From: Deltaproteobacteria bacterium
Lineage (GTDB): Bacteria; Myxococcota_A; Polyangia; Polyangiales; JADJMO01
NCBI GenBank assembly: GCA_022843175.1
Contig: JALHOE010000001.1
Coordinates: 70,988-134,987, forward strand
Direction: 5' to 3'
Length of the DNA stretch: 64,000 bases
The notes beneath the pieces were generated by a model. That model was not told where the DNA came from, did not search any database, and worked only from the letters and a program-made list of their open reading frames with translations. This document shows positions 26,723 through 52,841 of this stretch, piece after piece; the stretch's first letter is position 1; every line of letters begins with the position of its first letter. Made by a program: the position numbers and the translations under genes.

Positions 26723-27945
26723 GGCAGCGTTCCGGCCGCGGCGTCGAGCTCGATGCGTGCTTCAGCGAGCGCGAGCTCCGCGTCGAGCGCCTCTGTCGAT
26801 GCGTCTTGCAGCGTCTTGCGGAGAAGGAGGACGTCCGTGACGTTGCTGCTTCCGACGTCGTAGGCCTTGACCGCACGCGCGACGGCAACATCCGCGAGCG
26901 TCGCGACCTTCGCGAGCGCGTCGTGCGAGTCGCGCGCCGACGTCCAGCTGGCGTATGCCGCCTTGAGCTCCCCGATGGCCAGCGCACGAACGGCCGCGAG
27001 ATCGGCCTGGGCGGCGGCGACCTTGGCGTTCGCCGTCGCGATCGCGGTCTTGTTCGTGTTGAACAACGGCAACGGCAGTGACACGCCGACCGTCACGAAG
27101 TTCGTCGACTCGTGGTACTCGTAATTGCCGACGATGCCGAGCGTCGGCCACGCGTCTGACTTGGCGAGTCCGACCTGCGACCCGGCCGCGGTGACCGCTG
27201 CGGCGGCAGCCTGCACATCGGCGCGCTTGTCGATCGATGCGAGCAGCGTGTCGAGCGACTGAGGTGCGGAGATCGCGACGAGGTCACCTCCGACGCGGGC
27301 ATCCTCGGGAGCGCCGATGTACGCGACGAGAAGCGCTCGCTTCGCCGCGACGAGGCCATCGGCCGCCGACAGGCGTGCGTCCTCGCGCCCGAGCTCGATC
27401 TCGAACACGCTGGTGTCACCCTTCGCGATGTCGCCGGTCGCGGCGCGGCGCTTCGCGATGACCAGCAGGTTCGATGCGACCTCCTTGCGTGTCTTGGCGA
27501 GCGCGACGCCTCGCTGCGCACGGAGCGCGCGTGCCCAGCGAAGAAGCGCCTCGCGAACGACTCCGCGAAGACCGTCCGCGGCGCTCGCTTTCGCGGCGTC
27601 GACGTTCGTCGCGGCAGCGTCCGATCTTGCCTTCGGTCGTCCGCCGAGATCGAAGGGGATCAGCAAACTCGCGTTTGCCTCCGGGGTCTTCGGATCGCCG
27701 AAGCGCACTCCGCCCATCGCGGTCAGCGTGGGATTCGTCTGCGACACGATGCCCACGCCGACGGTGCCCGCCTTCGCGACGTCGACCTTCGTGGCGTTCG
27801 CCTTCGCGACGGGCGACTCGGTGCGCGCGTACTTCGCGACGCTCTCGCGATCGAGCACGACCGCCGCGTTGGCGACCTCGGCGTACGAACACAGCACGGC
27901 TCCGGCGAGCGCGATGCTCACCGACGAAGCGATCCAACCAGACAT
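26719..27945 (-). CDS. czcC: TolC-family outer-membrane factor (CzcC-like)
   Basis: ATG 27945 preceded by GAGGAGGAGG; signal peptide; two-repeat TolC-like helical pattern. Confidence 0.85.
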   Translation of the reverse strand: MSGWIASSVSIALAGAVLCSYAEVANAAVVLDRESVAKYARTESPVAKANATKVDVAKAGTVGVGIVSQTNPTLTAMGGVRFGDPKTPEANASLLIPFDLGGRPKARSDAAATNVDAAKASAADGLRGVVREALLRWARALRAQRGVALAKTRKEVASNLLVIAKRRAATGDIAKGDTSVFEIELGREDARLSAADGLVAAKRALLVAYIGAPEDARVGGDLVAISAPQSLDTLLASIDKRADVQAAAAAVTAAGSQVGLAKSDAWPTLGIVGNYEYHESTNFVTVGVSLPLPLFNTNKTAIATANAKVAAAQADLAAVRALAIGELKAAYASWTSARDSHDALAKVATLADVAVARAVKAYDVGSSNVTDVLLLRKTLQDASTEALDAELALAEARIELDAAAGTLP

Positions 27946-28102
27946 GAGAACCTCCTCCTCGGAGGCCCGCGGGCGTTGCCGCGGGCGAGCGCTACGCTCC
28001 AATTGCGGAGGTCAGCGCACTTCCAACGGACAAACTCGTCGCGCGCACGCGACGACGATGCGCCCCACCTGAGGGACGCCGCTGTTCACGGACGAGGAGA
28101 GA

Positions 28103-30346: not shown

Positions 30347-30685
30347 TCAGCGTGGCGCGAACGCCATGATTGCCATCCCCAGGATGGCGACCGACGCGCC
30401 GATCAGATCCCAGCTGTCGGGCTGCTGCTTGTCGACGAGGAACGCCCACGCGACGGCGACCGCAACGTACACGCCGCCGTACATCGCGTACGTGCGGCCA
30501 GCCGACGTCGGGTGCAACGTGAGCAACCATGCAAACGCCGACAGACTGAGTGCGGCCGGCAGAACGAGCCACAGCGATCCGCCGCGACGCAGCCAGAGAT
30601 ATGGCAGGTAGCACCCCACGATCTCGGCGAGCGCGGTCGCGACGAAGAGCGCGAACGTTCGAGCGATGGGCAACGGTGCTGACAT
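30347..30685 (-). CDS. ynfA: YnfA/UPF0060 family small membrane protein
   Basis: 112 aa; four TM helices; [13 protein letters not shown] and YGGVYVA motifs. Confidence 0.75.
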
Positions 30686-30701
30686 CTGCTTCGGTCCGAG
30701 A

Positions 30702-31424
30702 CTACTCCTTCGGACCGACGCCGAGCGCCGGCTTCAACGCGCCGAGCTGCCTTCGCTCCTTTTCTTCCGAATAGCGAGTCGTGAGGACATCGACCTGCGT
30801 CCGCAGGAGAAGGGTCATGCGGAACAGCTCCTCCATCACGTCGACAACGCGGTCCCGATAGCTCGAGGGCTTCATCCGCCCCTCTTGGTCGAACTCATCG
30901 AAGGCCTTCGGCACCGACGACTGGTTCGGGATGGTGAACATCCGCATCCACCGTCCGAGCACGCGCATCTGGTTCACCGCGTTGAAGGACTGGCTTCCTC
31001 CGGACACCTCGAGGACAGCGAGCGTTCGTCCCTGCGTTGGACGAACCGCGCCCGTGTTCAACGGCAGCCAGTCGATCTGGTTCTTGAACGCTGCGGTCAT
31101 CGCGCCGTGCTGCTCGGGCGACACCCAGACGTGCGCCTCGGACCAATCGCTCAGCTCGCGGAGCTCGCGCACCTTCGGAAGATCGAACGACTGTCGATCG
31201 AACACCGGCAACCCGCGCGGATCGAACAGGCGGACCTCCGCGCCGAAGCGAGTGAGAACGCGGACGCACTCCTCGGCGAGGTAGCGGCTGAAGCTCTTCT
31301 CGCGGAGGGAGCCGTACAAGACGAGCACGCGCGGCGGATGGGTCGGCAGCGGAGTCCGCGCGAAGCTCGCGAGCGTGGATTCGATGGTGTGCGGCGGCAG
31401 GTCGTCGTCGATCCGGTCGGGCAT
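30702..31424 (-). CDS. arsH: arsenical resistance protein ArsH (NADPH-dependent FMN reductase)
   Basis: [56 protein letters not shown] motifs. Confidence 0.85.
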
Positions 31425-31451
31425 GTGGTCGCTAGGTTGGTCGCAGAGCGA

Positions 31452-32699
31452 TCAGTCGGCCAGCTCGATCTTCGTGTCGGCCGCGAGCGCGATGGGCTCC
31501 CGCTGGGGCAGGAGCACCGAGATAGCGGTCGTGATCACCGTGAAGGCGAGCGTGCCGTAGAGGCAGCCCGCAATGCCGCCGATCTGGAAGAGCGCGCCCG
31601 AGAGCAGCGTGCCCACGAGCCGGCCCGCGGCGTTGGCCATGTAATAGAAGCCGACGTTCGTCGCGACCTTGTCGCCGTCGGAATAGGACAAGATCAGGTA
31701 CGAGTGCACGGCGGAGTTCAGCGCGAAGACGACGCCGAACACTCCGAGCCCGCCGATCAACAGCACAGCCGGCGGTACACCGGAGAGCAGTCCGAATGCC
31801 ATCGCCGCGGACGTGATCGTGAGAAGCAACGCGAGCACCTGCGCGGCTCGCCCCTGCGGCGCGTGACCACCGGTGAAGCGCACGAGCACCGTGGGGGTCA
31901 GCGACTGCACGGCGCCGTAGCCCACGACCCAGAGCGCGAGGAACGCGCCCACCTGTGTGAACGACCACCCGAGCTTTGCGCTGAGGAAGACCGGGACGCC
32001 GACGACGAACCAGATGTCGCGCGCGCCGAAGAGGAAGAGACGCGCCGCGGAGAGCGCGTTGATGTCGCGCGACTTCGAAAGGAGATGTTTGAACTTCGTT
32101 TTCGCCTTGGCCTTGCCCATCTCCGCCGGCAGCGACAGCACACACGCGACGAGGACCACGACGAGCGCGCCGGCCATGCCCCAGAGCGAGCCGCGGAACC
32201 CGGCGAGGGCTAGGAGCAACCCTCCGAGGAAGAAGCCCGCGCCCTTCAGCGCGTTCTTCGAACCGGTCAAGATCGCAACCCACTTGAAGAGCGCCGAGTG
32301 CGCGTCCTCGGGAAGGAGCACCTTGATCGAGCTCTTCGAGCTCATCTTCGTCAGATCCTTCGCGATGCCGGAGAGCGCCTGCGCCGCCATCACGTACGCG
32401 ACCGACACCGCCTTTGACCAGGTGGGGACGAGCAGCGACAACATGACAAGCGCGACGACCTGCATCGCAAGGCCCGAGAACAACGTGACCTTCAGGCCCA
32501 TGCGCGACGCAATCCACCCGCCGAGCAGGTTCGTGACGACGCCGAAGAACTCGTAGAAGAGGAACAGGAACGCGAGCTGGACGGGCGTGTAGCCGAGCTC
32601 GTGGAAGTGGAGCACCACGAGCATGCGGAGCGCGCCGTCGGTCAACGTGAACGCCCAGTACGCGAGCGTGACGAGGACGTAGTTCCGCAGCGCGCTCAT
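31452..32699 (-). CDS. arsJ: MFS transporter ArsJ (1-arseno-3-phosphoglycerate efflux)
   Basis: LRNYVLVTLAYWAFTLTDGALRMLVVLHFHELGY N-terminus typical of ArsJ; adjacent to gapdh. Confidence 0.8.
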   Translation of the reverse strand: MSALRNYVLVTLAYWAFTLTDGALRMLVVLHFHELGYTPVQLAFLFLFYEFFGVVTNLLGGWIASRMGLKVTLFSGLAMQVVALVMLSLLVPTWSKAVSVAYVMAAQALSGIAKDLTKMSSKSSIKVLLPEDAHSALFKWVAILTGSKNALKGAGFFLGGLLLALAGFRGSLWGMAGALVVVLVACVLSLPAEMGKAKAKTKFKHLLSKSRDINALSAARLFLFGARDIWFVVGVPVFLSAKLGWSFTQVGAFLALWVVGYGAVQSLTPTVLVRFTGGHAPQGRAAQVLALLLTITSAAMAFGLLSGVPPAVLLIGGLGVFGVVFALNSAVHSYLILSYSDGDKVATNVGFYYMANAAGRLVGTLLSGALFQIGGIAGCLYGTLAFTVITTAISVLLPQREPIALAADTKIELAD

Positions 32700-32709
32700 T
32701 CCGCGAGCA

Positions 32710-33720
32710 TCAACGGAGGCCGGCGCCGACCTTGCGCGCGAGATCGATCATGCGATGCACGTACCCGATCTCGTTGTCGTACCACGCGAGAATCTTCACC
32801 GACGTGCCGTCGACCACCATCGTGGAGAGCGCATCGATGATCGAGGAGTGCGGATCGTCCTTGAAGTCGATCGAGACCAACGGGCGCGTCTCGTAGGCAA
32901 GGATGCCCTTGAGCGGTCCCTCCGCCGCGCCCTTGAGGAGCGCGTTGACCTCTTCGACCGTGGTCGGCCGCGCCACCTCGAACACGCAGTCGGTGAGCGA
33001 CGCGTTGAGGAGCGGAACGCGCACCGCGAGGCCGTTCAACTTTCCCTTCAGCTCCGGGTAGATCATCGTGATCGCCGTTGCCGAGCCAGTGGTCGTCGGG
33101 ATGAGCGACATGCCCGAAGCGCGCGCGCGTCGGAGATCCTTGTGAGGAGCATCGACCACTGTCTGCGTGTTCGTCAGGTCGTGGATCGTCGTGATGACGC
33201 CATGCTTGATGCCGAGCCCCTCGTGGATGACCTTTACCACCGGCGCCAGGCAGTTCGTCGTGCACGACGCCGCTGTGAGCAGGTGATGCTCGGTCGGCTT
33301 GTACTCGTGATCGTTGACGCCGTAGACGATGTTCAGCGCCCCCTCCTTCACGGGAGCGGCGACGATGACCTTTTTCACGCCCTTCTCGAAGTAGGGAGCG
33401 AGCGTTTGCGGAGTGCGGAACTTGCCCGAGCACTCGAGCACGATATCGACGCCGGCGTCGCGCCAGGGAACCTCGCCTGGCGCCGCGCGATCGGTGAACC
33501 CGAGGCGCTTGCCCGCGATCTCGACCGCGCCCTCCCGCGCGTCGACCTTGTGCGGCCACCGGCCGTGCACCGAATCGAACGTGAGAAGGTGGGCTGCCGT
33601 CTCCGGCCCGCCCTTCGGCTCGTTGATGTGCACGAACTCGAGGTCCGGAGCTCCCCATCCCGCGCGAAGCGCGAGCCGCCCCATCCGACCGAACCCGTTG
33701 ATGCCGATGCGCACGCTCAA
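32710..33720 (-). CDS. gap: glyceraldehyde-3-phosphate dehydrogenase (ars-associated)
   Basis: [18 protein letters not shown] active site, WYDNEIGY; start is TTG 33720 or GTG 33714. Confidence 0.95.
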
Positions 33721-34154
33721 TGGTCACCGCCTTCCTCGACAATCATCAGCAACCGAATGCGACGTTCAAGACCGATCATCACGTCGTGAAACCGCTTCGC
33801 CATCGTGGCCTCGTCGAGGTCACCTTCGGCGGGGTCGCCGAACGACCAATGCGCCACGTGATCGCCGCGCATCGCGCCACACTCGCTCGTGGCACGGTCG
33901 CAGAGCGAGATGACGTAGTCGAAGTGCTGGCCGGCATAGCGCGACAGGTCCTTCGGCTCCTGCCCGCTCATGGAGATGCCGAGATCGGCGACGGCTTTGC
34001 GCGCGAGCGGATGGATATCGGGCCGCGGGCTCGTGCCCGCACTGAAGACCTCGAACCGGTCCCCGCCGATGTGCCGCAGCAGCGCCTCCGCCATCTGGCT
34101 GCGCGCCGAGTTGCCGGTGCAGACGAACAGAACGCGGATGGGTGCGGCGCTCAT
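33717..34154 (-). CDS. arsC: arsenate reductase, LMW-PTPase/thioredoxin-coupled type
   Basis: [18 protein letters not shown]-loop; ISLCD and SECG downstream Cys residues. Confidence 0.9.
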
Positions 34155-34246
34155 GCCGCCGGTTCTTCCAGATTTGCTTGCATGATGCAAGTACCTGTTG
34201 CGGGCGCCGCGATCCGTGTATCGTGCAAGCATCTGCCGGAGGCGTC

Positions 34247-34864
34247 ATGGGTATGCGCAGGAAGGACACGCGGTTCTTCGATGCGTTCGCGAGTCACGCG
34301 AACGTGACCTTGAAGGCCGCCCGCCTCGTCCGATCGATGTTCGACGATCTCGGTAGAGCGCAGGAGATCTCCGCCACGGTCAGCGCGGCGGAGAAGGAAG
34401 GCGACGAGATCACCCACGGGGTGATCCGCATGATCCACGAGACCTGGATCACGCCGATCGATCGACCGGACATCCATCGCCTCATCACCCGCATGGACGA
34501 CGTTCTCGACTTCGCTGAGGCCGTAGCCGAGCGGATCGTCCTCTTCGAGATCCGCGAGACACGCCCCGACGCGAAGGAGCTCGCGGACGTGCTCGTGAAG
34601 TGTTGCGAGTCCATCCAGAAGACGATGCAGCTCCTCCCGAAGATGCCGCGCGTCGAGCTGCTCGAGTGCTGCGGCGCGATCGGCGCCCTCGAAGATCTTG
34701 CAGACGACGTCTACCGGCGTGCGATCGCGACGCTCTTCAAGGCACCGGATGATCCGCTCATCGTGCTCAAGTGGCGCGACATCTACGACGCGCTCGAGAA
34801 CGCGACCGGCCGATGCGCCGACGTCGCGAACAACATCGAGGGCATCGTCCTCGAAGAGGCCTGA
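34247..34864 (+). CDS. DUF47 (PhoU-like, TIGR00153-type) protein
   Basis: FFDAF..HA, EKEGDEITH, IDRPDIHRL, WRDIYDALENATGRC motifs. Confidence 0.8.
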   Translation: MGMRRKDTRFFDAFASHANVTLKAARLVRSMFDDLGRAQEISATVSAAEKEGDEITHGVIRMIHETWITPIDRPDIHRLITRMDDVLDFAEAVAERIVLFEIRETRPDAKELADVLVKCCESIQKTMQLLPKMPRVELLECCGAIGALEDLADDVYRRAIATLFKAPDDPLIVLKWRDIYDALENATGRCADVANNIEGIVLEEA

Positions 34865-34900
34865 GGACGCGCTTGACCAGGCGGCGCGAGACGGACAACC

Positions 34901-35398
34901 TTGGCGGCGAACGTGGCTTCGAAGACTGATTTCGCATCGGCCCTGCGCCGCCTCGTGCGCGGCGTGAGTCGTCTCGAAAGGGACGTCGTGTGCTGCGATG
35001 TAACGTTGCAGCAGTTCGACACGATGAGGCTCCTCGCCGACGGTCCGCGCTTGAACACCGACCTGGCGCAGGCGCTCGGGATCGACCTCTCCACGGCGAG
35101 CCGGAATCTCGCCAAGCTGGAGGACGCCGGTTACGTGGAGCGAGTGGCGGTCGCCGAGGATGGGCGCGCCGTGGCGAACCGTCTCACGCGCAAGGGCAAG
35201 AAGTGCCTCGAGTCGCTGGTGTGCGACGAGCGCTTGGTGCTTGGCGGACTCGCGAACCGGCTACCGCCGGAGCGCCGCGACCTCGCAGCGGAAGTGCTGC
35301 GTGACCTCGCAGCGGCAGTCGACGCCGAGATCGCGGAGCGGACGTCCACGTGCACGACATGCGAGCCCGCGGCAAAGCCGCGCCGCAACGCTCGGTAG
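34901..35398 (+). CDS. MarR-family transcriptional regulator with a C-terminal CxxC
   Basis: winged-helix core LTDLAQALGIDLSTASRNLAKLEDAGYVERV...DGRAVANRLT; start codon uncertain (TTG 34901 or GTG 34913). Confidence 0.75.
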   Translation: MAANVASKTDFASALRRLVRGVSRLERDVVCCDVTLQQFDTMRLLADGPRLNTDLAQALGIDLSTASRNLAKLEDAGYVERVAVAEDGRAVANRLTRKGKKCLESLVCDERLVLGGLANRLPPERRDLAAEVLRDLAAAVDAEIAERTSTCTTCEPAAKPRRNAR

Positions 35399-35410: not shown

Positions 35411-35830
35411 TCACCGCGCGAAGTACTTCGTTGCGCGCTTCTCACCCTTCTTGCGAACGAGATTCTTCGCGAGCGCATGCGACATCGGCCGCGGGAGGTC
35501 CTTGCGGGAAAGCCCAAGCTCCTTTTGGATCTGTTCGGCGCGGAGGCCGTCCGGGTGCTTCTTCAGGAGCTCGACGACCGCGGTGGTGATCTTCTCGAAG
35601 TCCGCAGCAGTGCGGCGCTCACCCGCGCGTGCGCGCGCGAGCCGGGGCGTCGCCTTCAACGCACTCGCCGCGGGCATCGTCGAAGCGGAACGACGCCCAC
35701 CGCGGCTTGGAGCCGGTGCATCAGCGGAGATCGCACTCAGATCGGACAGCGAGGCACCGCGAAGCGCGGCGAGGATCTGGGACGCGAAGTCTTCGGCGAG
35801 ACGCGAAATCGTGGAGCGCAGTGCGGACAT
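35411..35830 (-). CDS. hypothetical protein with a basic, winged-helix-like C-terminal domain
   Basis: ORF with coding-like composition; FEKITTAVVELLKKHPDGLRAEQIQKELGLSRKDL...; no family recognised. Confidence 0.35.
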   Translation of the reverse strand: MSALRSTISRLAEDFASQILAALRGASLSDLSAISADAPAPSRGGRRSASTMPAASALKATPRLARARAGERRTAADFEKITTAVVELLKKHPDGLRAEQIQKELGLSRKDLPRPMSHALAKNLVRKKGEKRATKYFAR

Positions 35831-35902
35831 GGTTGCCAGTGATACGAGACCGTTGATCAACAGTCCACTCGCTCCCGCTATCTGTCTCGGCGCGGCCTTT
35901 CG

Positions 35903-36457
35903 TTAGCAGCTCTTGCAGGGCGCCGAGGCCTTTGGCGTGCACGCGACGACATTGCCACGTCGATCCATTTCGAAGTCACAGCAGGCGCGAACGATCTCCT
36001 CGAACATCTTCCGAGCGCGCTGCACGCGAGACTTGGCGCCCGAGAACGAAAGGCCCGTGCGCTCCGCGAGCTCGCGCTGGCTGAGGCCCTGCATCTCTGT
36101 GAGCTCGAGCGCCTCGCGGTACTCGTCCGGCATCGAGGCCATCAGCGTGCGGAACGAGCTCGCCATCTCGGCGTTGAAGTTCCTCTCGGGCTCCTCGGTC
36201 GACGGCTCTTCGGCATGGTCGAGCGACGCGTGATCGCGGCGGCGGCGGAGGTGATCGGTGACGACGCTGCGGGCGATCCTGAACAGCCAGGGAACGACAC
36301 GCGACTCGTCGCGGAGCTCGTCGGCGTGCTGCTTCATGCGCACGAAGATCTCCTGCGAAAGATCGTCGACGGCGTCCGGCCGGACGCGGCGGGCAACGAA
36401 CTGCCGCACGTCCGTCTGAAGTGCCAGGTACGCCTGCTCGATCTGCTCCATACCCAT
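35903..36457 (-). CDS. ECF sigma factor with a C-terminal Cys-rich extension (CorE-like)
   Basis: regions 2 and 4 (DDLSQEIFVRM, EMQGLSQRELAERTGLSFSGAKSRVQRARK), then ACCDFEMDRRGNVVACTPKASAPCKSC; no adjacent anti-sigma gene. Confidence 0.75.
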   Translation of the reverse strand: MGMEQIEQAYLALQTDVRQFVARRVRPDAVDDLSQEIFVRMKQHADELRDESRVVPWLFRIARSVVTDHLRRRRDHASLDHAEEPSTEEPERNFNAEMASSFRTLMASMPDEYREALELTEMQGLSQRELAERTGLSFSGAKSRVQRARKMFEEIVRACCDFEMDRRGNVVACTPKASAPCKSC

Positions 36458-36493
36458 GAAGACGCACTCGCTGCCAAAAGGACGCAGGAAAAG

Positions 36494-37630
36494 TTAACGG
36501 ACCGTCCTCTGCGGAGCCAGCTCGAGGTTCAAGGCGCCGGCGGCGAGCGCCAGCAACAGGGCCAGGCTGGAGAACGCGACCTTCGCGCCAAAGTGTGCCC
36601 GTGCCCAGCCGAGAACGAACGGAGCTGCTGCGCGCACGATCAGCCCGACGCGCGCGATGCGACCGCTGTTCTCGCCATAATGGTCGCGCCCGTACCGCTC
36701 GGCCACGATCGTCACACGCTCGATCGTGACCAGGCCGTTGCTCAGGCCGAAGACAACGACGCCGAACAGAGCCGCACCCGACCCGATCGCGACGAGCGCG
36801 ACACTCTGAGCGCCGAGCAACACCGTCATTCGCGCGGCCGCGCTCATCGTGCGCATCGCCGATGCTGTCAGCCGGCCGGCGACCTGTGCGACTCCCAACG
36901 TCCCTGCGATCGCTGCCGCGCGTGTAATAGACGCCCCCGTCTCGACGAGGTGCGCGACGAGCTGCACCGCCAGCCCGGTCGATGCGAACGCGTGCGCGGC
37001 AAACACCCAGGACAGCATGCGCACGTCGTCGTGAGCGGTTGATCGTGCGCGCGGGGTCGCACGCGTCGCGGGTAGCGAGGCATGGATCGGCGTCACGACG
37101 AGCAGCACCATTGCGGCCATCGCGACCACCGTGAGTCGCCAGCCGAATGCGCTGGTCGCACGGGCGATCAACGGACCGAAGATCGTGCTCGCGAATCCCG
37201 CGACCAGCGTGACGCCAACGATCGCGCGCAACCGGTCACGGTCGCTCTCGAACCACGACGTGATCGCCGCAAACGCGGGTTCGTACAGCACTGCTGCCTG
37301 CGCCACGCCGATGATTGCCCATGCGAGGTAGAGCGTCGCCACGCCGCGGGCACCGGCAAGCAGGAGCAACGCGACCGTCGCCGCACATGCGCCGGCGGTC
37401 ATCACCGCGCGCGCACCGTGCCGATCGAGCGCGCGTCCGATCGGTGCAGCGGCCAGGCCTCCAGCGAGGAGCGCGATCGAGTACGCGCCCGCGACGACGA
37501 CCTCCGAGGTGCCGAGGTCCTTCGCGATCGGCGCGAGGAGGATCCCGAACCCGTAGTGCAGGATCCCCCACGACGCCGTCTCCGCAATCGCGAGCGCGAC
37601 GACCGCGCGCACCGGGCTCACGCGCAACAA
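36494..37630 (-). CDS. MFS transporter
   Basis: 378 aa; 10-12 hydrophobic helices; GRALDRHGAR loop motif; overlaps the upstream flavoprotein gene by 13 nt. Confidence 0.75.
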   Translation of the reverse strand: MLRVSPVRAVVALAIAETASWGILHYGFGILLAPIAKDLGTSEVVVAGAYSIALLAGGLAAAPIGRALDRHGARAVMTAGACAATVALLLLAGARGVATLYLAWAIIGVAQAAVLYEPAFAAITSWFESDRDRLRAIVGVTLVAGFASTIFGPLIARATSAFGWRLTVVAMAAMVLLVVTPIHASLPATRATPRARSTAHDDVRMLSWVFAAHAFASTGLAVQLVAHLVETGASITRAAAIAGTLGVAQVAGRLTASAMRTMSAAARMTVLLGAQSVALVAIGSGAALFGVVVFGLSNGLVTIERVTIVAERYGRDHYGENSGRIARVGLIVRAAAPFVLGWARAHFGAKVAFSSLALLLALAAGALNLELAPQRTVR

Positions 37631-38820
37631 CCCGCTTCGCCGACGTTGCAGACGCCGGTCTCCGGCAGGTCGAGCTCGACGCGCATCGCCGCTTCGCGAT
37701 CGCCCGCGATCATCGCTGCGACGGAGCGCGCCTGCTCGTATCCAGTTGCGAGGAGGAACGTCGGCGCGCGGCCGTAGCTCTTGCTTCCGATCGTGTAGAA
37801 GCCCGGCTCGGGGTGCGCGAGCTCGATCGCTCCGTGCGGTCGCACCGTGCCGCAGCTGTGCTCATTGGGGTCGATGAGGGGACCGAGCTTCTCCGAGCAC
37901 TCGAGCCACGGATCGATCGCGAGGCGGAGCTCGCGTGTGATCGACAGGTCCGGCCGCTGTCCGGTCGCTGCGATGATCGTGTCAATCCCGCGCACGGCCC
38001 GCTCGACGCCGCGCTGCATTCCGATCACCACGAGCTTTCCGTTGTCGTCGCGAAGCTCGCGGATTGCGAACCCACTGATCCACTTCACGGCCTTTTTGTC
38101 GATGAGCGAGCGGAGGTCGGTCCCGAGCTTGCTGCGCGCGGGCAGTCCGTCGGCCGCTCCACCGCCGAGCACGCGCTTCGCGTCGTCGCTGCGGGTCATC
38201 CAGACCACGCTGGCGCGCATCGCCGCGAGCGCGAGGATCGAGTTCGCGGCGGAGTGCCCCGCACCGACCACCAGCGTGGTTCCGTCGGCGTGATGCACGT
38301 TGGGAATCCCGTAGAAAATCCGGCTCGCGAAGCGCGCCTCGCCGAGCACCGGAAGTCCCGATGCGCCGAGCGGATTAGGCGTTCGCCACGTTCCGGACGC
38401 GTCGATGACTGCGCGTGCCAGCATGTCCTCGTCGCCGATGCGCACGACAAACGGTGCGGCTGCGCGGTCGCGCGTACGTACCTTGTCCATGTTCGCACGA
38501 GAGATCGCGGTGACCCGTGCGCCGACCCGAACGTCGAGGCGGCGCGCGAGGGGCCGGAGATACCGGTCGACGAGATCGCGGCCGGTCGGCAGCTCCTCGG
38601 GATCGGGTGCGTCCCAACCCTCGAGCAGCTGCGCCGCGACGCGATCGACGTTGTAGCGCCACGGCGAGAACAGCCGCACGTGGCCCCACTCGAGGATGCT
38701 CGATCCGACGCTGTCGCCGGCCTCGAGCACGACGCTGCGAATGCCGCGATGGTGCAGGTGCGCCGCGGCGGCGAGCCCGACGGGCCCGCCGCCGATCACG
38801 AGCACGGGGAGCTCGTTCAT
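37618..38820 (-). CDS. CzcO-like FAD/NAD(P)-binding oxidoreductase ending in a vicinal Cys pair (GEAGCCA)
   Basis: ATG 38820. VLVIGGGPVGLAAA and LVVGAGHSAAN dinucleotide-binding motifs. No CxxxxC redox disulfide seen. C-terminal ...TGVCNVGEAGCCA. Confidence 0.75.
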   Translation of the reverse strand: MNELPVLVIGGGPVGLAAAAHLHHRGIRSVVLEAGDSVGSSILEWGHVRLFSPWRYNVDRVAAQLLEGWDAPDPEELPTGRDLVDRYLRPLARRLDVRVGARVTAISRANMDKVRTRDRAAAPFVVRIGDEDMLARAVIDASGTWRTPNPLGASGLPVLGEARFASRIFYGIPNVHHADGTTLVVGAGHSAANSILALAAMRASVVWMTRSDDAKRVLGGGAADGLPARSKLGTDLRSLIDKKAVKWISGFAIRELRDDNGKLVVIGMQRGVERAVRGIDTIIAATGQRPDLSITRELRLAIDPWLECSEKLGPLIDPNEHSCGTVRPHGAIELAHPEPGFYTIGSKSYGRAPTFLLATGYEQARSVAAMIAGDREAAMRVELDLPETGVCNVGEAGCCA

Positions 38821-38821
38821 C

Positions 38822-38980
38822 TCAGCACCCGCAGCTCTTCGGCGGCTTCTTGGTGTCCGTTGTGCCGCAGCACGACGACTTCGCCTCGGGTGCGCAGCAG
38901 CTCTCGGCCTTCTCCGAGTCGCAGCAGCTCTCCTCGGCCTCGGGGATCTCGGCGAGCGTCTTCTCTTCTTCGTTCTGCAT
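38822..38980 (-). CDS. unannotated 52-aa Cys-rich peptide (MQNEEEKTLAEIPEAEESCCDSEKAESCCAPEAKSSCCGTTDTKKPPKSCGC)
   Basis: AAGGAGG 5 nt before the ATG; three SCC repeats plus a terminal CGC; its stop lies 1 nt before the flavoprotein ATG; below the track cutoff. Confidence 0.6.
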   Translation of the reverse strand: MQNEEEKTLAEIPEAEESCCDSEKAESCCAPEAKSSCCGTTDTKKPPKSCGC

Positions 38981-39065
38981 GATGACCTCCTTCGGCACCG
39001 GTCCGGTGCTCTCGGAAGTACAGACGCAGACCGGGATCGGAAGGACGCAGGAAACCCGAAGGACG

Positions 39066-39368
39066 TCAGGTCGGGGTGAAGCCGAGCCGCACGATCTCGT
39101 TCTTGATCGAGGCCGCCGAGGTGCGGCTGGCGTCGTACGAGACGACGACGTCCTTCTTTGCGACGTCGACCTGTACGTCGCTCACGCCGTCGAGCTTCCG
39201 CAATCCATCGCGCAGGCGGTTCGCGCACGCGGAGCACGCGATGCCGTCCACGTGAAATCGCGCGACTGCCGCCTGGACTGCGGATCCGTGCGTACTCGTG
39301 TCGGCGCTCGCCCTCGCACAGCCGGCGAGGGCGAGCGTCACCGTGACCAGCCACGGCGCGACGCGCAT
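39066..39368 (-). CDS. heavy-metal-associated (HMA) domain lipoprotein (MerP/CopZ-like)
   Basis: lipobox ALAGC; GIACSACANRL metal-binding loop; ferredoxin-like fold pattern. Confidence 0.85.
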   Translation of the reverse strand: MRVAPWLVTVTLALAGCARASADTSTHGSAVQAAVARFHVDGIACSACANRLRDGLRKLDGVSDVQVDVAKKDVVVSYDASRTSAASIKNEIVRLGFTPT

Positions 39369-39622
39369 CAGCCCGCCCCGAGGCCCATCTCGCGCAGCAC
39401 CGCGATATCGATCCCGCCCGCCGCGCAGCAGTCGGCGAGCTTCCCGTCGATGACGACGGCGGGAACACGCTTGATGCCAAACTTCTTGGCATCCGCAGCG
39501 ACCGCCGGGTCGTTCATGTCACGCACCGACACGGTGCAGTTCACACAAGCAGCCTGCTTCACCGCGGCGATCGCCTCGTCGCAGCAGGGGCACCCAGCAC
39601 TGAAAATCTGAACGTCAGCCAT
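39368..39622 (-). CDS. small glutaredoxin/thioredoxin-like protein (CPCC)
   Basis: MADVQIFSAGCPCCDEA...VPAVVIDGK pattern of redox-active disulfide protein 2 type; ATGA overlaps at both ends. Confidence 0.7.
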   Translation of the reverse strand: MADVQIFSAGCPCCDEAIAAVKQAACVNCTVSVRDMNDPAVAADAKKFGIKRVPAVVIDGKLADCCAAGGIDIAVLREMGLGAG

Positions 39623-40035
39623 CACACACCTCCACGCTTCAAACGGATTTGCACGAGCGGCGCCCACGGGTGCCGACGCGCCCACCAATCACTGACGAGC
39701 GCCGCGACGAGGAGCACCATGCCCACGTACAGGACGATCTCGTTGAGCAAGAACCGTCCGGTCATCGTCACGACGGCCGCCGTCGCACCGACGCCGATCG
39801 TCCACCATCGACGATGCCGTCGAGCCGACAGCACGAAGCCGATCAACCCGATGGTCAACGTGATGGCGAGGATCCAGCGCACGTTGCGCTCGACCAAGAG
39901 GAACCCGAGACCGAGCGAAGCGAGGATGCCGCCGGAAGTCGCGATGCAGATGGGGCAGAGCCCCTTCGGCACGATGACGGCGAGAACCGTTCCGACGGAT
40001 GACAGCCAGCGCGATCGCGAGAGGTCGTTGGCCAT
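39622..40035 (-). CDS. MerC-like metal transporter
   Basis: first TM motif GLCPICIATSGGILASLGLGFL (compare MerC GCAACFPALASFGAAIGLGFL); four predicted helices. Confidence 0.6.
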   Translation of the reverse strand: MANDLSRSRWLSSVGTVLAVIVPKGLCPICIATSGGILASLGLGFLLVERNVRWILAITLTIGLIGFVLSARRHRRWWTIGVGATAAVVTMTGRFLLNEIVLYVGMVLLVAALVSDWWARRHPWAPLVQIRLKRGGV

Positions 40036-40069
40036 GACCACACCTTGAGGTCTGTACGTAGATACCGAG

Positions 40070-40483
40070 TCAAGAGGGGTTCGGAGTTTTTTCGAGCGCC
40101 TCAAGGATGGGGCACGTCACCGCCCCGCCCGTCGCGCACGCGCACGCCTCCGCAAGCGACGAAAGTGCGGCGCGCATCGCGCTGAGGTCGCGGATCTTCT
40201 CATCGATGTCGGCGAGCTTTGCGGTCGCGGCTGCACGCGCAGCAGGGGCTCGCTTGGGTCCCGCCGACCTCAATCGCAGCAGCTCCTTTGCATCACGCAA
40301 CGTGAACCCGAGCTCCTGCGCGCGCTTCACGAACGTAACGATTCGAACGGCTTCGTCGGTGTACTGCCGGTAGCCCGACGTCGCGCGACGAGGAGCAGGA
40401 AGGATGCCCTCGCGCTCGTAGTACCGAAGCGTCTGCACGTTCACGCCCGCGGCCTTCGCGACATCACTGGTTCGGAGCGCCAT
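40070..40483 (-). CDS. MerR-family metal-responsive regulator
   Basis: HTH VAKAAGVNVQTLRYYEREGIL; C-terminal LAEACACATGGAVTCPILEAL parallels MerR [20 protein letters not shown]; ATG at 40483. Confidence 0.9.
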   Translation of the reverse strand: MALRTSDVAKAAGVNVQTLRYYEREGILPAPRRATSGYRQYTDEAVRIVTFVKRAQELGFTLRDAKELLRLRSAGPKRAPAARAAATAKLADIDEKIRDLSAMRAALSSLAEACACATGGAVTCPILEALEKTPNPS

Positions 40484-40492
40484 CGTCCCCAA

Positions 40493-40523
40493 GCGTAAGG
40501 CTTGTACCCAGGTACAGGGTCAA
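40493..40523 (-). promoter_or_regulatory. MerR-type promoter/operator (TTGACC - 19 bp containing TGTAC-CTGG-GTACA - TTACGC)
   Basis: read on the minus strand: cttgaccctgtacctgggtacaagccttacgct; the -10 lies about 10 nt from ATG 40483, so the transcript may be leaderless. Confidence 0.5.
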
Positions 40524-40789: not shown

Positions 40790-41739
40790 TTCGCGGCGGC
40801 GCTCGTCGCGGAGAACGAACTGCTTCGGCTGCAGCTCGCGGTCGCGAAGCGGCGGCTCGAGGGGAAGCGGGTGCGCGCGTTCCCAACGCAGCGGTGGACC
40901 GTTGGGGTCCTGTCGCGGTTCACGTCGACGTGGCGGTCCGCGGTGACGTTGTTCGAGCCGGCGACCGTGCTGCGATGGCATCGCGAAGGGTTCAGGGTGT
41001 TCTGGCGATGGCGTTCGAGGAGGTCGGCGACCGAGGTCGCATGCGGCGACGATGCGCGACATGACCGCGAAGAACCCGAGGTGGGGCGCGGAGCGGATCC
41101 GCGGCGAGCTGCTCAAGCTTGGCATCCGTGTCTCGAAGCGCACGATCCAGCGGTACATGCAGGTGGCGCGCAAGCCGGGTGACGGACAGCGTTGGCGAAC
41201 GTTCATCAAGAACCATGCGACGTGGGCCTGCGATTTCATGCAGACGTTCGATGCGCTGTTCAGGCCGATCTTCATCCTGTTCTGCATCGACCTGAAGCGA
41301 CGCCGGATCGTGCACGCAGCGGTCACGTACCACCTAACGGACGACTGGTGCGCGCAGCAGGCGCGCAACGTGATGATGGACGGGCAGCCCGAGGTGTTGA
41401 TCGTCGATCGCCACAGCAAGCTCGGCGGGAAGTCCGCGACCATGTTCAAGGCCGTCGGCGTGCGCGTCGTGCGCACTGTGATCCGCGCACCCCTCATGAA
41501 TGCGTTCGCGGAGCGGTTCGTCGGCACGCTCCGACGCGAGCTGCTCGATCACGTCCTGATCCTCGGCGATGAACATCTCGCGCGGCTCGTTCGCGAGTAC
41601 GTCCCGTTCTACAACGAGGGGCGACCGCATCAGGCGCTCGATCAACAGCAGCCTGTGCCGCGAGCGCCGGAGACGACCGGCGGGATCGTTTCCCTGCCGT
41701 CCTCGGGGGTCTTCATACGACTACCGCCGAGTGGCATGA
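40790..41739 (+). mobile_element. frameshifted IS transposase (rve/integrase-core type), decayed
   Basis: N-terminus ENELLRLQLAVAKRR...VLRWHREGFRVFWRWRS in one frame. Core MTAKNPRWGAERIRGELLKLG...DRHSKLGG...FYNEGRPHQALD in a second frame. Tail VLGGLH / YDYRRVA* in two further frames. This gives at least three frameshifts. Confidence 0.75.
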
Positions 41740-42236
41740 CGCGCCCCTACGACGCGCGCGGCGAAAGTAGCCATCACACGTGCGCCGGCGACGGCGTTCG
41801 TCCAGAATTGGAGGAGCCTCGGTTCCTGTCGCACTGGCGGCCATCATCATCGCGTGCGGCGCCAGCGGCGATCACACCGCGACGACGCCGCGACCTACGA
41901 CAAGGAAATCGCGTTCCGCGATCTCGAGGTCGTCGGGTTCCTTGATCGGAACGCGGACGAGAATTGTCGCCGGAGGAATACGGGCCGTTCCGCGTGAGTG
42001 ATGTCGTCGCTGGGTCCCCCGACTATCCACTTGTGCACGTCGCGTTTCGGGTGTTGCGAGTGGTGCTGGGGGGAAGCGAAGGAGCAGATTCGCTGGTTAC
42101 GCGGCTACGGCGGTCGGCTGCGCGTGCTTCGGGTGTACGTCGATGACCTGCGCGGCCAGCGCGCGGACCGCGCGGACGTCGTCGGCCAGGATCGTCCATG
42201 TGTACGCCCGAACCTTCACCTGGATCGCGCCTCGGC

Positions 42237-42346: not shown

Positions 42347-42757
42347 ATGAACCACCTGGAAATGCTGAAGACCCACCCGCGGAAGACGATGGTCGATCCG
42401 AAGGTCCTGTCGGACTGCATCGAGGAGTGCCTCGCTTGCGTCGACGCCTGCAACAGCTGCGCGGACGCTTGCCTCGGCGAGCAGCAGATCGACATGCTCC
42501 GGCGGTGCATTCGACTCAACCTCGACTGCGCTGACGCGTGCCAGTCCGCGGCGCGCATGCTCGCGCGGCAGACCGAGCCCGCTTGGCTGCTGATCCGTGC
42601 GCAGGTCCAGGCGATGGAGCTCGCATGTCGCCTGTGCGCCGAGGAGTGCGAGAAGCACGCGAAGAAGCACGAGCACTGCCGGATCTGCGCGGAGGCGTGT
42701 CGCCGCTGCGAGGCCGCGTGTCGTCGGATCATGTCGCTGTTGCCGGCGCAGGCCTGA
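42347..42757 (+). CDS. four-helix-bundle Cys-rich copper-binding protein (DUF326/Csp3-like), copy 1
   Basis: 136 aa with 19 Cys in repeated C-x-x-x-C / C-x-x-C helical spacing (CIEECLACVDACNSCADAC...CRICAEACRRCEAAC). Confidence 0.85.
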   Translation: MNHLEMLKTHPRKTMVDPKVLSDCIEECLACVDACNSCADACLGEQQIDMLRRCIRLNLDCADACQSAARMLARQTEPAWLLIRAQVQAMELACRLCAEECEKHAKKHEHCRICAEACRRCEAACRRIMSLLPAQA

Positions 42758-42770
42758 GCCACGACAAACG

Positions 42771-44615
42771 ATGCGCCGCATCGCGGTCGAACGCACCATT
42801 GGCGACTACGCGGCGATCGGTGACACGCACACGGTCGCGCTGATCGGTCGCGATGGGTCGATCGACTGGTGTTGTCTCCCCCGGTTCGACTCGGCCGCGG
42901 TCTTCCTCCGCCTCCTGGATGAAGATCGCGGCGGGTCGTTCCGCGTCGCGCCCGTCGAAGCAAGCGACGCACGAAGGGAGTACGTCACCGGTACGAACGT
43001 CCTCGACACGACGTTCTCCTCACCGCGCGGTCTCGTTCGGCTGCGCGACTGGATGCCGTGGCACGGAGCGCACCTCCTCGGCGAGGAGCGGCACGCGATC
43101 GTCCGCGACATCAGCGGTGTCTCCGGCACCTGCAATGTCGAGATCACGTTTCGTCCGACGTTCGACTTCGCACGCCGCAACGCGATCATCGAGCGCTTCG
43201 ACGACGGTGTCGTTGCGATCGAAGGATCTGGCGCGCTCGCGCTCTTTGCCCCGGGGGTGGCGTTCACTGCGCTGGGCGATCGGGCGCGAGGAGCGCTCGA
43301 CGTGCGGCCGGGATCCAGTCAGCGGGTCGTCGCCGCGTTCGCATTGCGCGCGGAGGAAGCGACCGCCGTCGCGCGAGCTGTCTACGAGGAGTCGATCGAC
43401 GACACCATCGCGACGTGGCGCGCCTGGTCCGGCCGGTGTGCGTACGACGGGCCTTACCGCGATGCCGTGCTGCGAAGCGCACTCACGCTGAAGCTCATGA
43501 CGTTCGGCCCGAGCGGCGCGCTCGTCGCGGCGCCCACGACGTCGCTGCCCGAAGCGCGCGGCGGCGTGCGGAACTGGGACTATCGATATGCATGGTTGCG
43601 CGACGCCTCCATCGCGCTGCATTCCTTGATGGCACTCGGGTATCACGACGAGGCGCTGCGGTTCTGGGACTGGCTCGAGATCCTCGGCGAGGGTTGGGAA
43701 TGCGGGATGCCGGTTCGGATCATGTACACGCTCGATGGTGAGGTCGTACCCACCGAGTCAACGCTCGATCACCTCGCAGGATTTGGTGGCGCGCGGCCGG
43801 TGCGCATCGGGAACAACGCGTCCGAGCAGCTCCAGCTGGATGTCCTCGGAGAGGTTCTTCACGCCGCGGACACCTGCCACGCGGCGCTCGGATGGGAGCG
43901 GCCGCGTTTGCTCCGCGCGCTCGCTTGTCTCGCCGAGATGGCGGCGAACGAGTGGCGCAGGCCCGATGCCGGTATCTGGGAAATGCGAACCGCGCCCGCG
44001 CACCATGTGAACTCGAAGTTGTTCTGCTGGGTCGCGCTCGATCGCGCGCTTCTCTTGTCGCGCCGCGCTGGGCTGCACGGCGATACGGCGAAGTGGCAGC
44101 GCGAGGCCGATGCGATCCGCGACGCGATCCTGAGCGATGGATTCTCGCCGGCGCTCGGGTCGTTCACGCAGACGTTGGGCGGAAGCGCCATCGACGCGAG
44201 CGCCTTGCGCATACCGCTATTGCATCTGCTTCCACCCACGGACCCACGGGTCGTGTCGACGGTCGAGCGCATCGAGCGCGATCTGACCCGCGGGGGCCTC
44301 GTGCTCAGGTACCGCGCCGACGACGGCCTGCCGGGTGACGAAGGAACGTTCGCGTTGTGCACCCTCTGGCTCGCGAACGTCCTCGCGCGCATCGGGCAGC
44401 CCGAGCGCGCCCGTGCGTACCTCGATCGGGTGCTCGCGGCAGCCAACGACGTCCGTCTGCTATCGGAGGAAATCGACGCCGACTCCAGTGAGCTCCTGGG
44501 CAACTTCCCGCAGGCGTTCACGCACCTCGGTGTGATCGACGCAGCGCTTGCGATCGCGAAGGCGGAACGAACGCGCGCGGGAGGCGCTGCCTTTCAACCG
44601 ACGCGATCGAGGTAG
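42771..44615 (+). CDS. glycoside hydrolase family 15 (glucoamylase/trehalase-like), copy 1
   Basis: IGDYAAIGDTHTVALIGRDGSIDWCCLPRFDS N-terminus; VRNWDYRYAWLRDAS, LSEEID...LGNFPQAFTHLGVI motifs. Confidence 0.85.
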   Translation: MRRIAVERTIGDYAAIGDTHTVALIGRDGSIDWCCLPRFDSAAVFLRLLDEDRGGSFRVAPVEASDARREYVTGTNVLDTTFSSPRGLVRLRDWMPWHGAHLLGEERHAIVRDISGVSGTCNVEITFRPTFDFARRNAIIERFDDGVVAIEGSGALALFAPGVAFTALGDRARGALDVRPGSSQRVVAAFALRAEEATAVARAVYEESIDDTIATWRAWSGRCAYDGPYRDAVLRSALTLKLMTFGPSGALVAAPTTSLPEARGGVRNWDYRYAWLRDASIALHSLMALGYHDEALRFWDWLEILGEGWECGMPVRIMYTLDGEVVPTESTLDHLAGFGGARPVRIGNNASEQLQLDVLGEVLHAADTCHAALGWERPRLLRALACLAEMAANEWRRPDAGIWEMRTAPAHHVNSKLFCWVALDRALLLSRRAGLHGDTAKWQREADAIRDAILSDGFSPALGSFTQTLGGSAIDASALRIPLLHLLPPTDPRVVSTVERIERDLTRGGLVLRYRADDGLPGDEGTFALCTLWLANVLARIGQPERARAYLDRVLAAANDVRLLSEEIDADSSELLGNFPQAFTHLGVIDAALAIAKAERTRAGGAAFQPTRSR

Positions 44616-52638: not shown

Positions 52639-52841
52639 GTTGAGCTCTCCGATGCCGGAGCGACTGCTGCAATCGCTGTGAACGAACGCTGCCCCCGGAC
52701 CCTTGAACGTCTGTGTCACGTTGGCACTGGCCCATCTGTGGAGGTTGCTTCCAATCTCGCAAAACTACCGTGCGTCCGGCACGTGATGCTCTCGCCGCTC
52801 GAGGCGATACCGCGGCCGGGGCAGCGTTACGGTCGAGGCGC

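Follow-up and report, generated by a model that had tools for sequence, protein, structure and literature searches.

We analysed a 64-kb stretch of DNA from a Deltaproteobacteria bacterium (contig JALHOE010000001.1, positions 70,988 to 134,987), referred to throughout as the window, in which a compact cluster combines mer-type genes with genes of an arsenic-resistance type. A preliminary description of the sequence had listed seven co-directional genes here as one mer-like operon. All seven are present on the minus strand, and domain scans agree with their labels; an eighth co-directional gene, absent from that list and encoding a SigZ-type sigma factor of the extracytoplasmic function (ECF) group, lies 37 nt beyond the last of them, a major facilitator superfamily (MFS) transporter gene. 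In transcriptional order the eight minus-strand genes are merR, a merC-like gene, a gene for a thioredoxin-like (Trx-like) protein, an HMA lipoprotein gene, a gene for a short peptide rich in vicinal cysteine pairs (the CC peptide), a flavoprotein gene, the MFS gene and sigZ. The region probably represents two independently regulated resistance modules placed head to tail within a metal(loid) island. Unit A (40523-39066) would comprise merR, the merC-like and trx-like genes and the HMA lipoprotein gene, driven by promoters P1 and P2, and unit B (39049-35903) the CC-peptide, flavoprotein, MFS and sigZ genes, driven by P3 and P4. Coordinates are positions in the window; labels such as L001 or L081 denote the loci of relatives that were compared, and P labels with four digits denote homologues. 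The features are as follows.

40492 to 40523, minus strand: P1, MerR-type promoter 5′ of merR, read from the sequence; kept in L083 and L090.
40070 to 40483, minus strand: merR, MerR-family metal-sensing regulator of 137 amino acids (aa) with Cys114, Cys116, Cys124 and Ala79; Pfam MerR_1 and MerR-DNA-bind.
40042 to 40073, minus strand: P2, MerR-type promoter overlapping the merR stop codon, read from the sequence; kept in L083 and L090.
39622 to 40035, minus strand: MerC-family membrane protein, 137 aa, CPIC motif in the first helix; Pfam PF03203.
39368 to 39622, minus strand: minimal thioredoxin-fold protein, 84 aa, with C11xxC14, C26xxC29 and C65C66; Pfam Thioredoxin_3.
39066 to 39368, minus strand: HMA-domain lipoprotein, 100 aa, lipobox LAGC, metal motif GIACSAC; Pfam HMA, 5e-15.
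39022 to 39049, minus strand: P3, candidate ECF (SigZ-type) promoter 5′ of the CC-peptide gene, from a motif scan; kept in L081 and L082.
38995 to 39009, minus strand: small hairpin in the 5′ untranslated region (UTR) of the CC-peptide gene, just before the GAAGGAGG ribosome-binding site; stem kept in the window, L081 and L082.
38822 to 38980, minus strand: CC-rich peptide, 52 aa, three CC pairs and a C-terminal CGC; strong ribosome-binding site GAAGGAGG, G+C at third codon positions (GC3) of 0.91.
37618 to 38820, minus strand: putative ArsV-type two-dinucleotide-binding flavoprotein, 400 aa, with C323, C391 and a C398-C399 tail; Pfam Pyr_redox_3.
36494 to 37621, minus strand: ArsK-like MFS transporter, 375 aa, GTG start; MFS_1, best NCBIfam match ArsK.
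36460 to 36486, minus strand: P4, candidate ECF (SigZ-type) promoter directly 5′ of sigZ, from a motif scan; equivalent site in L082.
35903 to 36457, minus strand: SigZ-type (ECF238-like) sigma factor with the Cys-rich C-terminal extension ACCDFEMDRRGNVVACTPKASAPCKSC; NCBIfam SigZ models.

Gene spacing within the cluster is less uniform than the preliminary description had it, with ATGA or TGATG overlaps at most junctions. Only three of the six junctions among the seven genes overlap (TGATG twice, GTGA once), and one other is a 1-nt gap; the HMA lipoprotein start overlaps the trx stop as TGATG, and the GTG start of the MFS gene overlaps the flavoprotein stop. There are two real intergenic gaps, 34 nt between merR and merC and 85 nt between the HMA and CC-peptide genes, and a conserved promoter lies inside each. 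A terminator scan of the cluster found no terminator-like sites on the minus strand.

The two halves occur separately in other genomes. Among three close relatives of the flavoprotein (87%, 84% and 72% identity), all keep a 51–54-aa CC peptide, the flavoprotein and the MFS transporter as a group, and the sigma gene follows in two; none of the three has merR, merC, trx or HMA genes upstream. A wider set of 80 flavoprotein-homologue loci from species-level genomes contains MerR-like genes in 3, HMA genes in 2 and MerC in none. The merR-merC-trx genes, for their part, were found without the flavoprotein in the contexts examined in other genomes, and in a relative with more than 90% identity in MerR and Trx they are followed by unrelated genes. 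In the relatives examined, the halves were never found together.

These distributions bear directly on the arrangement first proposed for the locus: a single MerR-controlled seven-gene operon whose relay would pass Hg, Au, Te/Se or Cu from the HMA lipoprotein to MerC, on to the glutaredoxin-like protein and CC peptide, and finally to a flavoprotein replacing MerA. Such an operon would account for the shared orientation of all genes, their tight spacing and the lack of a terminator-like site between the halves, and it draws further on the conserved C-terminal CC of the flavoprotein, as in MerA, and on the presence of MerA (8k41) among its distant fold matches. MerA carries a CxxxxC redox pair, a C-terminal CC and usually an NmerA domain; the flavoprotein lacks the CxxxxC redox disulfide, and a pattern search found no MerA active-site motif in any frame of the window. 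Because the halves are distributed independently, the flavoprotein half has its own conserved ECF promoter in the 85-nt gap, and the flavoprotein belongs to a family of ars islands under ArsR, MarR_ars or SigZ, one MerR-driven relay ending in a MerA-like reductase is not supported, and we regard it as highly improbable. A MerA-like reading of the flavoprotein was rejected on the missing CxxxxC, the ars-island context and the position of the gene outside the MerR unit, so that comparative context avoids a wrong ‘MerA substitute’ label. The cluster is better read as two modules joined by accretion, from which gene order alone had suggested a new mercury-like pathway. The broader expectation that the cluster handles metals or metalloids is borne out.

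The flavoprotein has the two dinucleotide folds (two Rossmann motifs), the missing CxxxxC and the GEAGCCA terminus noted at the outset. Its family is large, with more than 8,000 word-sharing matches and about 609 clusters (50% identity) at E ≤ 1e-30, and it spans many phyla. C323 (in HSCG) and C391 (in ETGVC) are invariant, and C398 and C399 nearly so. Between one and five CC motifs follow ETGVC in 116 of 120 close homologues, making the C-terminal CC a conserved feature of the family; the clade of the window has the shortest enzyme tail, with one CC, and most homologues have longer tails with two or three. An ars-type marker lies within 8 kb in 62 of the 80 homologue loci, and ACR3, ArsH, ArsJ or ArsC in 42. 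An MFS gene directly follows the flavoprotein in half of them (40/80), and the candidate regulators nearby are ArsR (50 loci), SigZ (11) and MarR_ars (7). The preliminary description had allowed that the enzyme might belong to a non-metal family with an unconserved CC tail; the family found is metalloid-linked and its tail is conserved.

Individual loci point to a particular arsenic enzyme. On an Ensifer adhaerens plasmid the order is arsR, a flavoprotein that is 50% identical over its full length and carries a CC..CC..GCGC tail, and a gene named arsK by the NCBI annotation pipeline (PGAP); in Bosea sp. AS-1, arsR-arsC-arsC-acr3-arsR precedes the flavoprotein and an MFS gene. The study that described MarR_ars placed marR upstream of arsV in Roseateles aquatilis NZ_NIOF01000003.1. 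In that accession (L001), the gene after the Cys-bearing marR encodes this flavoprotein, with 60% identity, preceded by a GNAT segment. The same study described ArsV as an NADPH-dependent flavin monooxygenase (FMO) that turns methylarsenite, MAs(III), into MAs(V); it makes E. coli resistant to MAs(III) and to roxarsone(III), Rox(III), and its inducers are As(III) and Sb(III). The wider literature treats ArsV as an oxidase that uses NADPH and FAD and acts on methylarsenite, roxarsone(III) and Sb(III). An Achromobacter arsV induced by As and Sb bears the PGAP name ‘FAD-dependent oxidoreductase’, as do members of the flavoprotein family. Natural fusions join the flavoprotein to an ArsR helix-turn-helix domain, an ArsN-like GNAT domain, an MFS transporter, SigZ or an N-terminal CC-rich peptide (P0104, P0113, P0266, P0269, P0278, P0307); some of these could be gene-calling read-throughs. 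In L001 itself, at 7493-9404, the GNAT (ArsN-like) reading frame continues into that of the flavoprotein across a frame change; either the two are fused and a frameshift arose in sequencing, or they are separate genes that overlap.

The ArsV family is marked by a place in ars operons, often with an ArsK-type or ArsW-type exporter gene next, and the flavoprotein genes have this kind of setting. The flavoprotein thus appears, on sequence and gene context, to be an ArsV-type enzyme, and the ArsV/ArsK core of unit B would be a known kind of module and not the undescribed pathway first suggested. ArsO was tried as another assignment and rejected on score (NF040505; 70.7 bits where 425 is required, with only profile positions 3-192 matched). 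The MFS transporter fits the same picture, its best NCBIfam match being ArsK (NF033733). Compared with the arsV-arsK and arsR-arsV modules of Ensifer adhaerens, Achromobacter sp. As-55 and Paracoccus sp. SY, the window has a flavoprotein that is apparently of their family, together with the downstream ArsK-type MFS gene and the ars-island setting. It departs from them in having a SigZ-type ECF sigma factor in place of ArsR or MarR_ars, in a long Cys-rich tail cut to a single CC with a separate CC-rich peptide gene upstream, and in an MFS protein that is only 32% identical to the PGAP-named ArsK of Ensifer and falls below the ArsK equivalog cut-off (169.3 bits against 400). What is new on the known ArsV/ArsK core is SigZ control and the CC peptide, as regulatory and accessory features.

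Structural comparison leaves room for a different chemistry. The AlphaFold2 model of the flavoprotein (pLDDT 79.7) shows a two-dinucleotide-binding fold, and its nearest solved folds by Foldseek are YpdA/Bdr, thioredoxin reductase (TrxR), TrxR-like ferredoxin-NADP reductase and SMFMO-type FMOs. Classification, which the preliminary description had framed as a choice between MerA and CzcO/FMO-like enzymes, removed MerA for want of a MerA-type motif and left Pyr_redox_3 and the FMO/TrxR-like groups. The enzyme might be a thiol-based reductase, like YpdA/Bdr or a TrxR with a C-terminal redox tail, in which NADPH would reduce a disulfide or metalloid-thiol adduct on the CC tail or CC peptide and the reported ‘oxidase’ phenotype would be indirect. 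The best Foldseek matches are bacillithiol disulfide reductase (7a76, 7a7b) and low-molecular-mass TrxRs, the conservation of C323, C391 and CC398-399 would suit such a mechanism, P0104 joins the CC peptide to the enzyme, and the canonical FMO motif FxGxxxHxxxY is not obvious, by eye, in the family consensus. Against these stand the published NADPH-dependent oxidation of MAs(III) to MAs(V) by ArsV, with resistance in E. coli, and the fact that identity to solved structures is highest, at 23%, for the SMFMO-type monooxygenases. We consider a reductase improbable and retain the ArsV-type oxidase, which, on the chemistry in the ArsV literature, would use NADPH and FAD to oxidize methylarsenite, aromatic As(III) compounds or Sb(III). 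The mobile CC tail and free CC peptide may bind the trivalent substrate as a thiolate and pass it on to the active site, and the ArsK-like MFS transporter would export the substrate or product. Flexible vicinal cysteines able to capture a soft substrate also occur in the tails of MerA (CC) and high-molecular-mass TrxR (GCUG/SCCS), in the CC pairs of ArsD and in the Cys-rich N-termini of ArsM; the likeness is one of motif logic alone, with no homology to the flavoprotein tail or CC peptide. The strictly conserved cysteines of the family (C323, C391 and the CC tail), together with the sometimes detached CC peptide, are direct targets for mutagenesis.

The gene that closes unit B suggests how the module is regulated. 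SigZ and CorE2 have been placed in ECF238, a group in which the C-terminus is extended by about 20 Cys-rich aa and anti-sigma factors are lacking; CorE and CorE2 sense Cu or Cd/Zn directly, through an extension of this kind, SigZ function has been described as little studied, and ECF44 is marked by a CxC in the linker. The window SigZ has the short Cys-rich C-terminal extension of ECF238 and no anti-sigma gene beside it, its neighbours being the MFS gene and a 149-aa open reading frame (ORF) without a family match. Its linker contains no Cys, which sets it apart from the CorE-like ECF44 proteins. The CC directly after region 4 is invariant in 11 flavoprotein-linked SigZ relatives. With CorE, CorE2 and SigZ of ECF44 and ECF238 it shares an ECF core with a Cys-rich extension of about 25 aa, the lack of an adjacent anti-sigma gene and an own-type promoter upstream of the sigma gene, suggesting partial autoregulation. 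It differs in its associated genes, which are those of arsenic (arsV here; arsM, arsI, arsC and acr3 elsewhere) and not those of copper, zinc or cadmium; an arsenic link of these sigma factors was not found in the papers searched.

The candidate SigZ promoters were recognized as a shared motif. P3 reads TGCGTCCTTCC-N-TGCGTCT and P4 TGCGTCCTTTT-N-GCGTCT, with TGCGTCCTT-N-GCGTCT in common. This exact motif has three matches in the 64-kb window against 0.09 expected, and only P3 and P4 have a T-rich stretch after the first element. The third match, GCGTCC-N15-GCGTCT at 12155-12181 (-), lies antisense inside another gene, lacks the T-run and was taken as chance. The motif is kept 5′ of the CC-peptide gene in L081 and L082 and 5′ of the sigma gene in L082. 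Between P3 and the CC-peptide start, the 5′ UTR hairpin is preserved through different stems, GCACC/GGTGC in the window, GCGCC/GGCGC in L081 (about 5465-5480) and GCGCTC/GAGCGC in L082 (about 7805-7825); an Rfam scan of the cluster returned nothing credible.

Searching metagenome contigs reciprocally, with the SigZ alignment as the query, extended this pattern to 80 further loci (L092-L171), 41 of them at least 4 kb long. The motif TGCGTCCTTTT-N10-nCGTCT occurs 56 times in their 426 kb, against a background of about 1.2 per 100 kb in 70 non-SigZ flavoprotein loci. Almost all matches are in the orientation of sigZ, lying 5′ of sigZ or 5′ of its neighbour, and the motif is upstream of sigZ in 17 loci. 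The 53 genes downstream of these motifs include ArsM (24), SigZ (16), ArsP-like permeases (4), ArsI/CadI (2) and the DF family (2); all six ArsM assignments that were checked exceeded the NF008823 cut-off. Specific ars markers are present in 30 of the 41 longer loci. The data point to an ECF sigma family tied to genes of arsenic methylation, demethylation, oxidation and efflux in many phyla, and they suggest, from sequence comparison, that this SigZ subgroup is an arsenic-island regulator with a recognizable promoter, of which the window would be a variant with an ArsV module.

Mechanistically, SigZ, with no partner anti-sigma gene and with the invariant CC and further cysteines after region 4, may respond directly to a trivalent metalloid and, once activated, would drive transcription at TGCGTCCTT-N-GCGTCT promoters 5′ of sigZ itself and 5′ of the CC-peptide gene.

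The CC peptide has no Pfam or NCBIfam match, and it is kept in L081 and L082. A sequence search found only five close clusters of homologues, because the peptide is short and low in complexity. A pattern search was more informative: peptides with three or four CC pairs occur only in SigZ-linked loci, in 8 of about 13 as against none of about 70 other flavoprotein loci. Their position varies: in the window, L081 and L082 they precede the flavoprotein gene, in two Nonomuraea loci they precede sigZ, and in three Bacteroidota loci they follow it. The peptide could accordingly be imagined as a sensing partner of SigZ, a small thiol-rich anti-sigma factor or co-sensor whose loading with As(III) or Sb(III) would free SigZ or activate it; its restriction to SigZ-linked loci would follow from this, as would its place beside sigZ and not the flavoprotein in Nonomuraea and Bacteroidota. 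This is the main alternative to a carrier role, but we find it unlikely, since in published accounts the members of ECF238 need no anti-sigma factor and most metagenome SigZ loci showed no such peptide. Its likenesses also point elsewhere. In P0104 the flavoprotein begins with a CC-peptide-like segment; most flavoprotein (ArsV) homologues have long CC tails that resemble the peptide, and the CC-x-CC N-termini of many ArsM proteins in the metagenome SigZ loci resemble it too. We infer that the CC peptide is a detached, trans-acting form of the Cys-rich tail, serving as a metalloid carrier or buffer.

Taken more broadly, we tentatively propose that SigZ-type ECF238 factors with the invariant CC and a TGCGTCCTTTT-N10-CGTCT promoter may be widespread, phylum-crossing one-protein As/Sb sensors that control arsM, arsI, arsC, arsP-like and arsV genes without ArsR or an anti-sigma factor, with CC-repeat peptides as dedicated carriers or co-sensors; we hold this with less confidence than the two-module reading of the locus, and short of an even chance. 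If true, this would give a function to the long-uncharacterized SigZ group and add a fourth type of ars regulator after ArsR, MarR_ars and AioR-type systems; if confirmed, it would improve the prediction of arsenic-responsive regulons in metagenomes and provide a compact sensor part. Full-text literature searches for an ECF sigma factor with arsM, or SigZ with arsenite, returned nothing, and as subscription-journal papers and supplements were outside their coverage this is weak evidence of novelty.

Several observations weigh against the account of two modules with an ArsV-type, SigZ-controlled unit B. With no terminator between the HMA and CC-peptide genes, MerR-driven read-through into unit B is possible. 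The putative ArsV assignment draws on gene order, on PGAP product names and on one accession cited in a figure legend, and not on alignment with bona fide ArsV proteins (Ensifer ST2, Paracoccus SY, Achromobacter As-55). Disulfide reductases (YpdA/Bdr, TrxR) are as prominent as FMOs among the nearest solved folds, and the C323 loop and tail have pLDDT below 50 in the model, so that no cysteine geometry can be read from it. The window SigZ falls just below both NCBIfam SigZ cut-offs (PRK09637, 177.9 against 212; TIGR02959, 166.2 against 168.65). Finally, the flavoprotein is present in none of the 41 metagenome SigZ loci of at least 4 kb, and ArsV is a minority member of the SigZ regulon.

Unit A begins with the mer-type promoter and dyad that the preliminary description had recognized. 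P1 consists of TTGACC (40523-40518), the dyad TGTACC-TG-GGTACA (40516-40503) and TACGCT (40497-40492), with a spacer of 19 or 20 bp according to the hexamer chosen and the merR ATG 8 nt after the -10 element. P2 consists of TTGACT, GGTAT-CTAC-GTACA and CAAGGT, with the merC ATG 6 nt downstream; its counterpart in L083 is GGTAC-TTGG-GTACA, and it is also kept in L090. Both have the layout of mer operons, a long spacer (19-20 bp) with a dyad operator between -35 and -10. A sigma-70 promoter scan with 16-18 nt spacing found nothing in the cluster, missing P1 because a MerR-type spacer is 19-20 bp. A leaderless mRNA from P1, as first suggested, is plausible, and both promoters probably give rise to leaderless mRNAs.

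The regulator ends in ...ACACATGGAVTCP and, as described earlier, has an Hg-type Cys pair and no third Cys. MerR binds Hg through Cys79 from one subunit and Cys114 and Cys123 from the other. Alignment to solved MerR (5crl, 4ua1) and CueR places Ala79 at the position of MerR Cys79 and CueR Ser77 and retains the C-terminal Cys pair, leaving the three-ligand site of mer regulators incomplete, and C116-x7-C124 has the spacing of the CueR loop. Among solved structures, Tn501 MerR, Bacillus MerR and CueR match best, and the protein falls below all NCBIfam cut-offs for MerR, ZntR and CueR (TIGR02051 (MerR), 117 against 150.85; CueR, 106 against 147). An activator with this two-thiolate site (Cys114/116 and Cys124, with Ala for the third ligand) would bind a thiophilic metal and, once metal-bound, remodel the long-spacer promoters P1 and P2.

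The membrane protein passes the Pfam MerC threshold (PF03203, 40.2 bits against 27.6) and misses the NCBIfam MerC equivalog (24.8 against 140), and the HMA lipoprotein is below the CopZ and MerP equivalog cut-offs (MerP, 42.4 against 92.55). The third protein had been described as ‘CPCC glutaredoxin-like’; it is a thioredoxin-fold protein whose CPCC is a CxxC motif, the middle Cys being only 66% conserved. Across its roughly 800 homologues, C11xxC14 and C65C66 are invariant and C26xxC29 is 90% conserved, and the AlphaFold2 model (pLDDT 84.5) has as its best PDB match 2k8s, the uncharacterized Trx-like protein NE0084. In the contexts examined, its gene accompanies merR and merC or HMA genes. 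In L083 and L084, merR-merC-trx lies between Cus-type efflux genes and a multicopper oxidase gene, and in another locus it lies beside czc and ars genes. A literature search gave nothing specific on a MerC and thioredoxin module; merR-merC-trx is a recurrent soft-metal triad for which no characterized member was found. The metal may pass from the periplasmic HMA lipoprotein to the CxxC of the MerC-family protein and on to the cytoplasmic thioredoxin-fold protein with its six conserved cysteines.

Two features near these genes concern their history. Part of an IS3/IS481-type transposase gene, which matches the profiles in their C-terminal portion only, occupies 41052-41945 (+) and abuts the MerR promoter; a fragment beside P1 is consistent with acquisition of unit A by insertion. 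In L083, the sequence after trx (about 5250-5400) reads like a decayed HMA lipoprotein gene, with LALAGS for LALAGC and the metal motif lost, which suggests that merR-merC-trx-HMA is the older arrangement.

Which metal unit A handles can be approached by comparison with known systems. With the Tn501/Tn21 mer operons (merRTPCAD) it shares a MerR-family activator with a C-terminal Cys pair, a GTAC-N4-GTAC dyad in a long-spacer promoter, a membrane protein that Pfam places in the MerC family and a periplasmic HMA protein that would stand in for MerP. It differs from them in lacking MerA, MerT and MerD, in Ala for Cys79, in an HMA protein that is a lipoprotein, in the extra thioredoxin-fold protein and in a second MerR-type promoter between merR and merC. 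With the Cu(I)/Ag(I)/Au(I) sensors CueR and GolS it has in common the two-cysteine loop, a non-thiol residue at position 77/79 and triad relatives beside Cus and multicopper-oxidase genes, but here the residue is Ala and not Ser, an extra Cys gives a MerR-like CAC pattern, and the operator is of the mer type. We lean towards copper, silver or gold because of the neighbours elsewhere (Cus, multicopper oxidase, redoxins) and a nearby Csp-like gene, and have a slight preference for Cu(I)/Ag(I)/Au(I) over Hg(II). Unit A could instead be a minimal mercury system without a role for Cu, Ag or Au, in which a MerR variant senses Hg(II) and the metal is taken up and sequestered in the cytoplasm without reduction. 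The top matches of the regulator, by hidden Markov model and in the PDB, are to MerR, the GTAC-N4-GTAC operator presumably resembles that of Tn501 mer, and the membrane protein, besides passing the Pfam MerC threshold, has a CxxC that aligns by eye with the MerC Cys pair. Loss of the third Hg ligand, the lack of MerA in the window, the missed equivalog cut-offs for all of MerR, MerC and MerP, the flanking Cus-type efflux and multicopper oxidase genes of the triad in L083 and L084 and a Csp-like copper-storage homologue 1.8 kb away make a mercury system rather doubtful, though less so than the other alternatives considered here.

The whole window looks like a metal(loid) resistance island. Directly beyond sigZ, 30347-34232 (-) carries ynfA, arsH, arsJ and the ArsJ-associated GAPDH gene, all above their NCBIfam cut-offs, and an arsC-like low-molecular-weight phosphatase gene. 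Divergent from arsC, at 34247-35398 (+), are a DUF47/TIGR00153-like gene and a MarR gene. MarR_ars proteins are defined by conserved Cys36 and Cys37 and a C-terminal Cys; in the window MarR (34901-35398), a CC at residues 31-32 aligns with the CC of Roseateles MarR_ars, at an identity of only 27%, and C-terminal cysteines are present. This MarR probably regulates the arsC-gapdh-arsJ-arsH unit.

The 149-aa ORF downstream of sigZ (35411-35860, -) has a GC3 of 0.76, a moderate coding signal and a basic, winged-helix-looking C-terminus. Further out, 21455-28002 (-) holds a CDF transporter gene, identified by a family scan, followed by three ORFs of czcCBA-type RND size, and 56969-60301 (-) holds a second RND-sized ORF of 1110 aa; the RND label comes from size alone in both places. 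Two paralogous pairs, at 42347-44615 (+) and 50726-54722 (-), each combine a gene for a DUF326/Csp-like Cys-rich four-helix-bundle protein with a GH15 glucoamylase-like gene; lying in opposite orientation, they look like an inverted duplicated segment.

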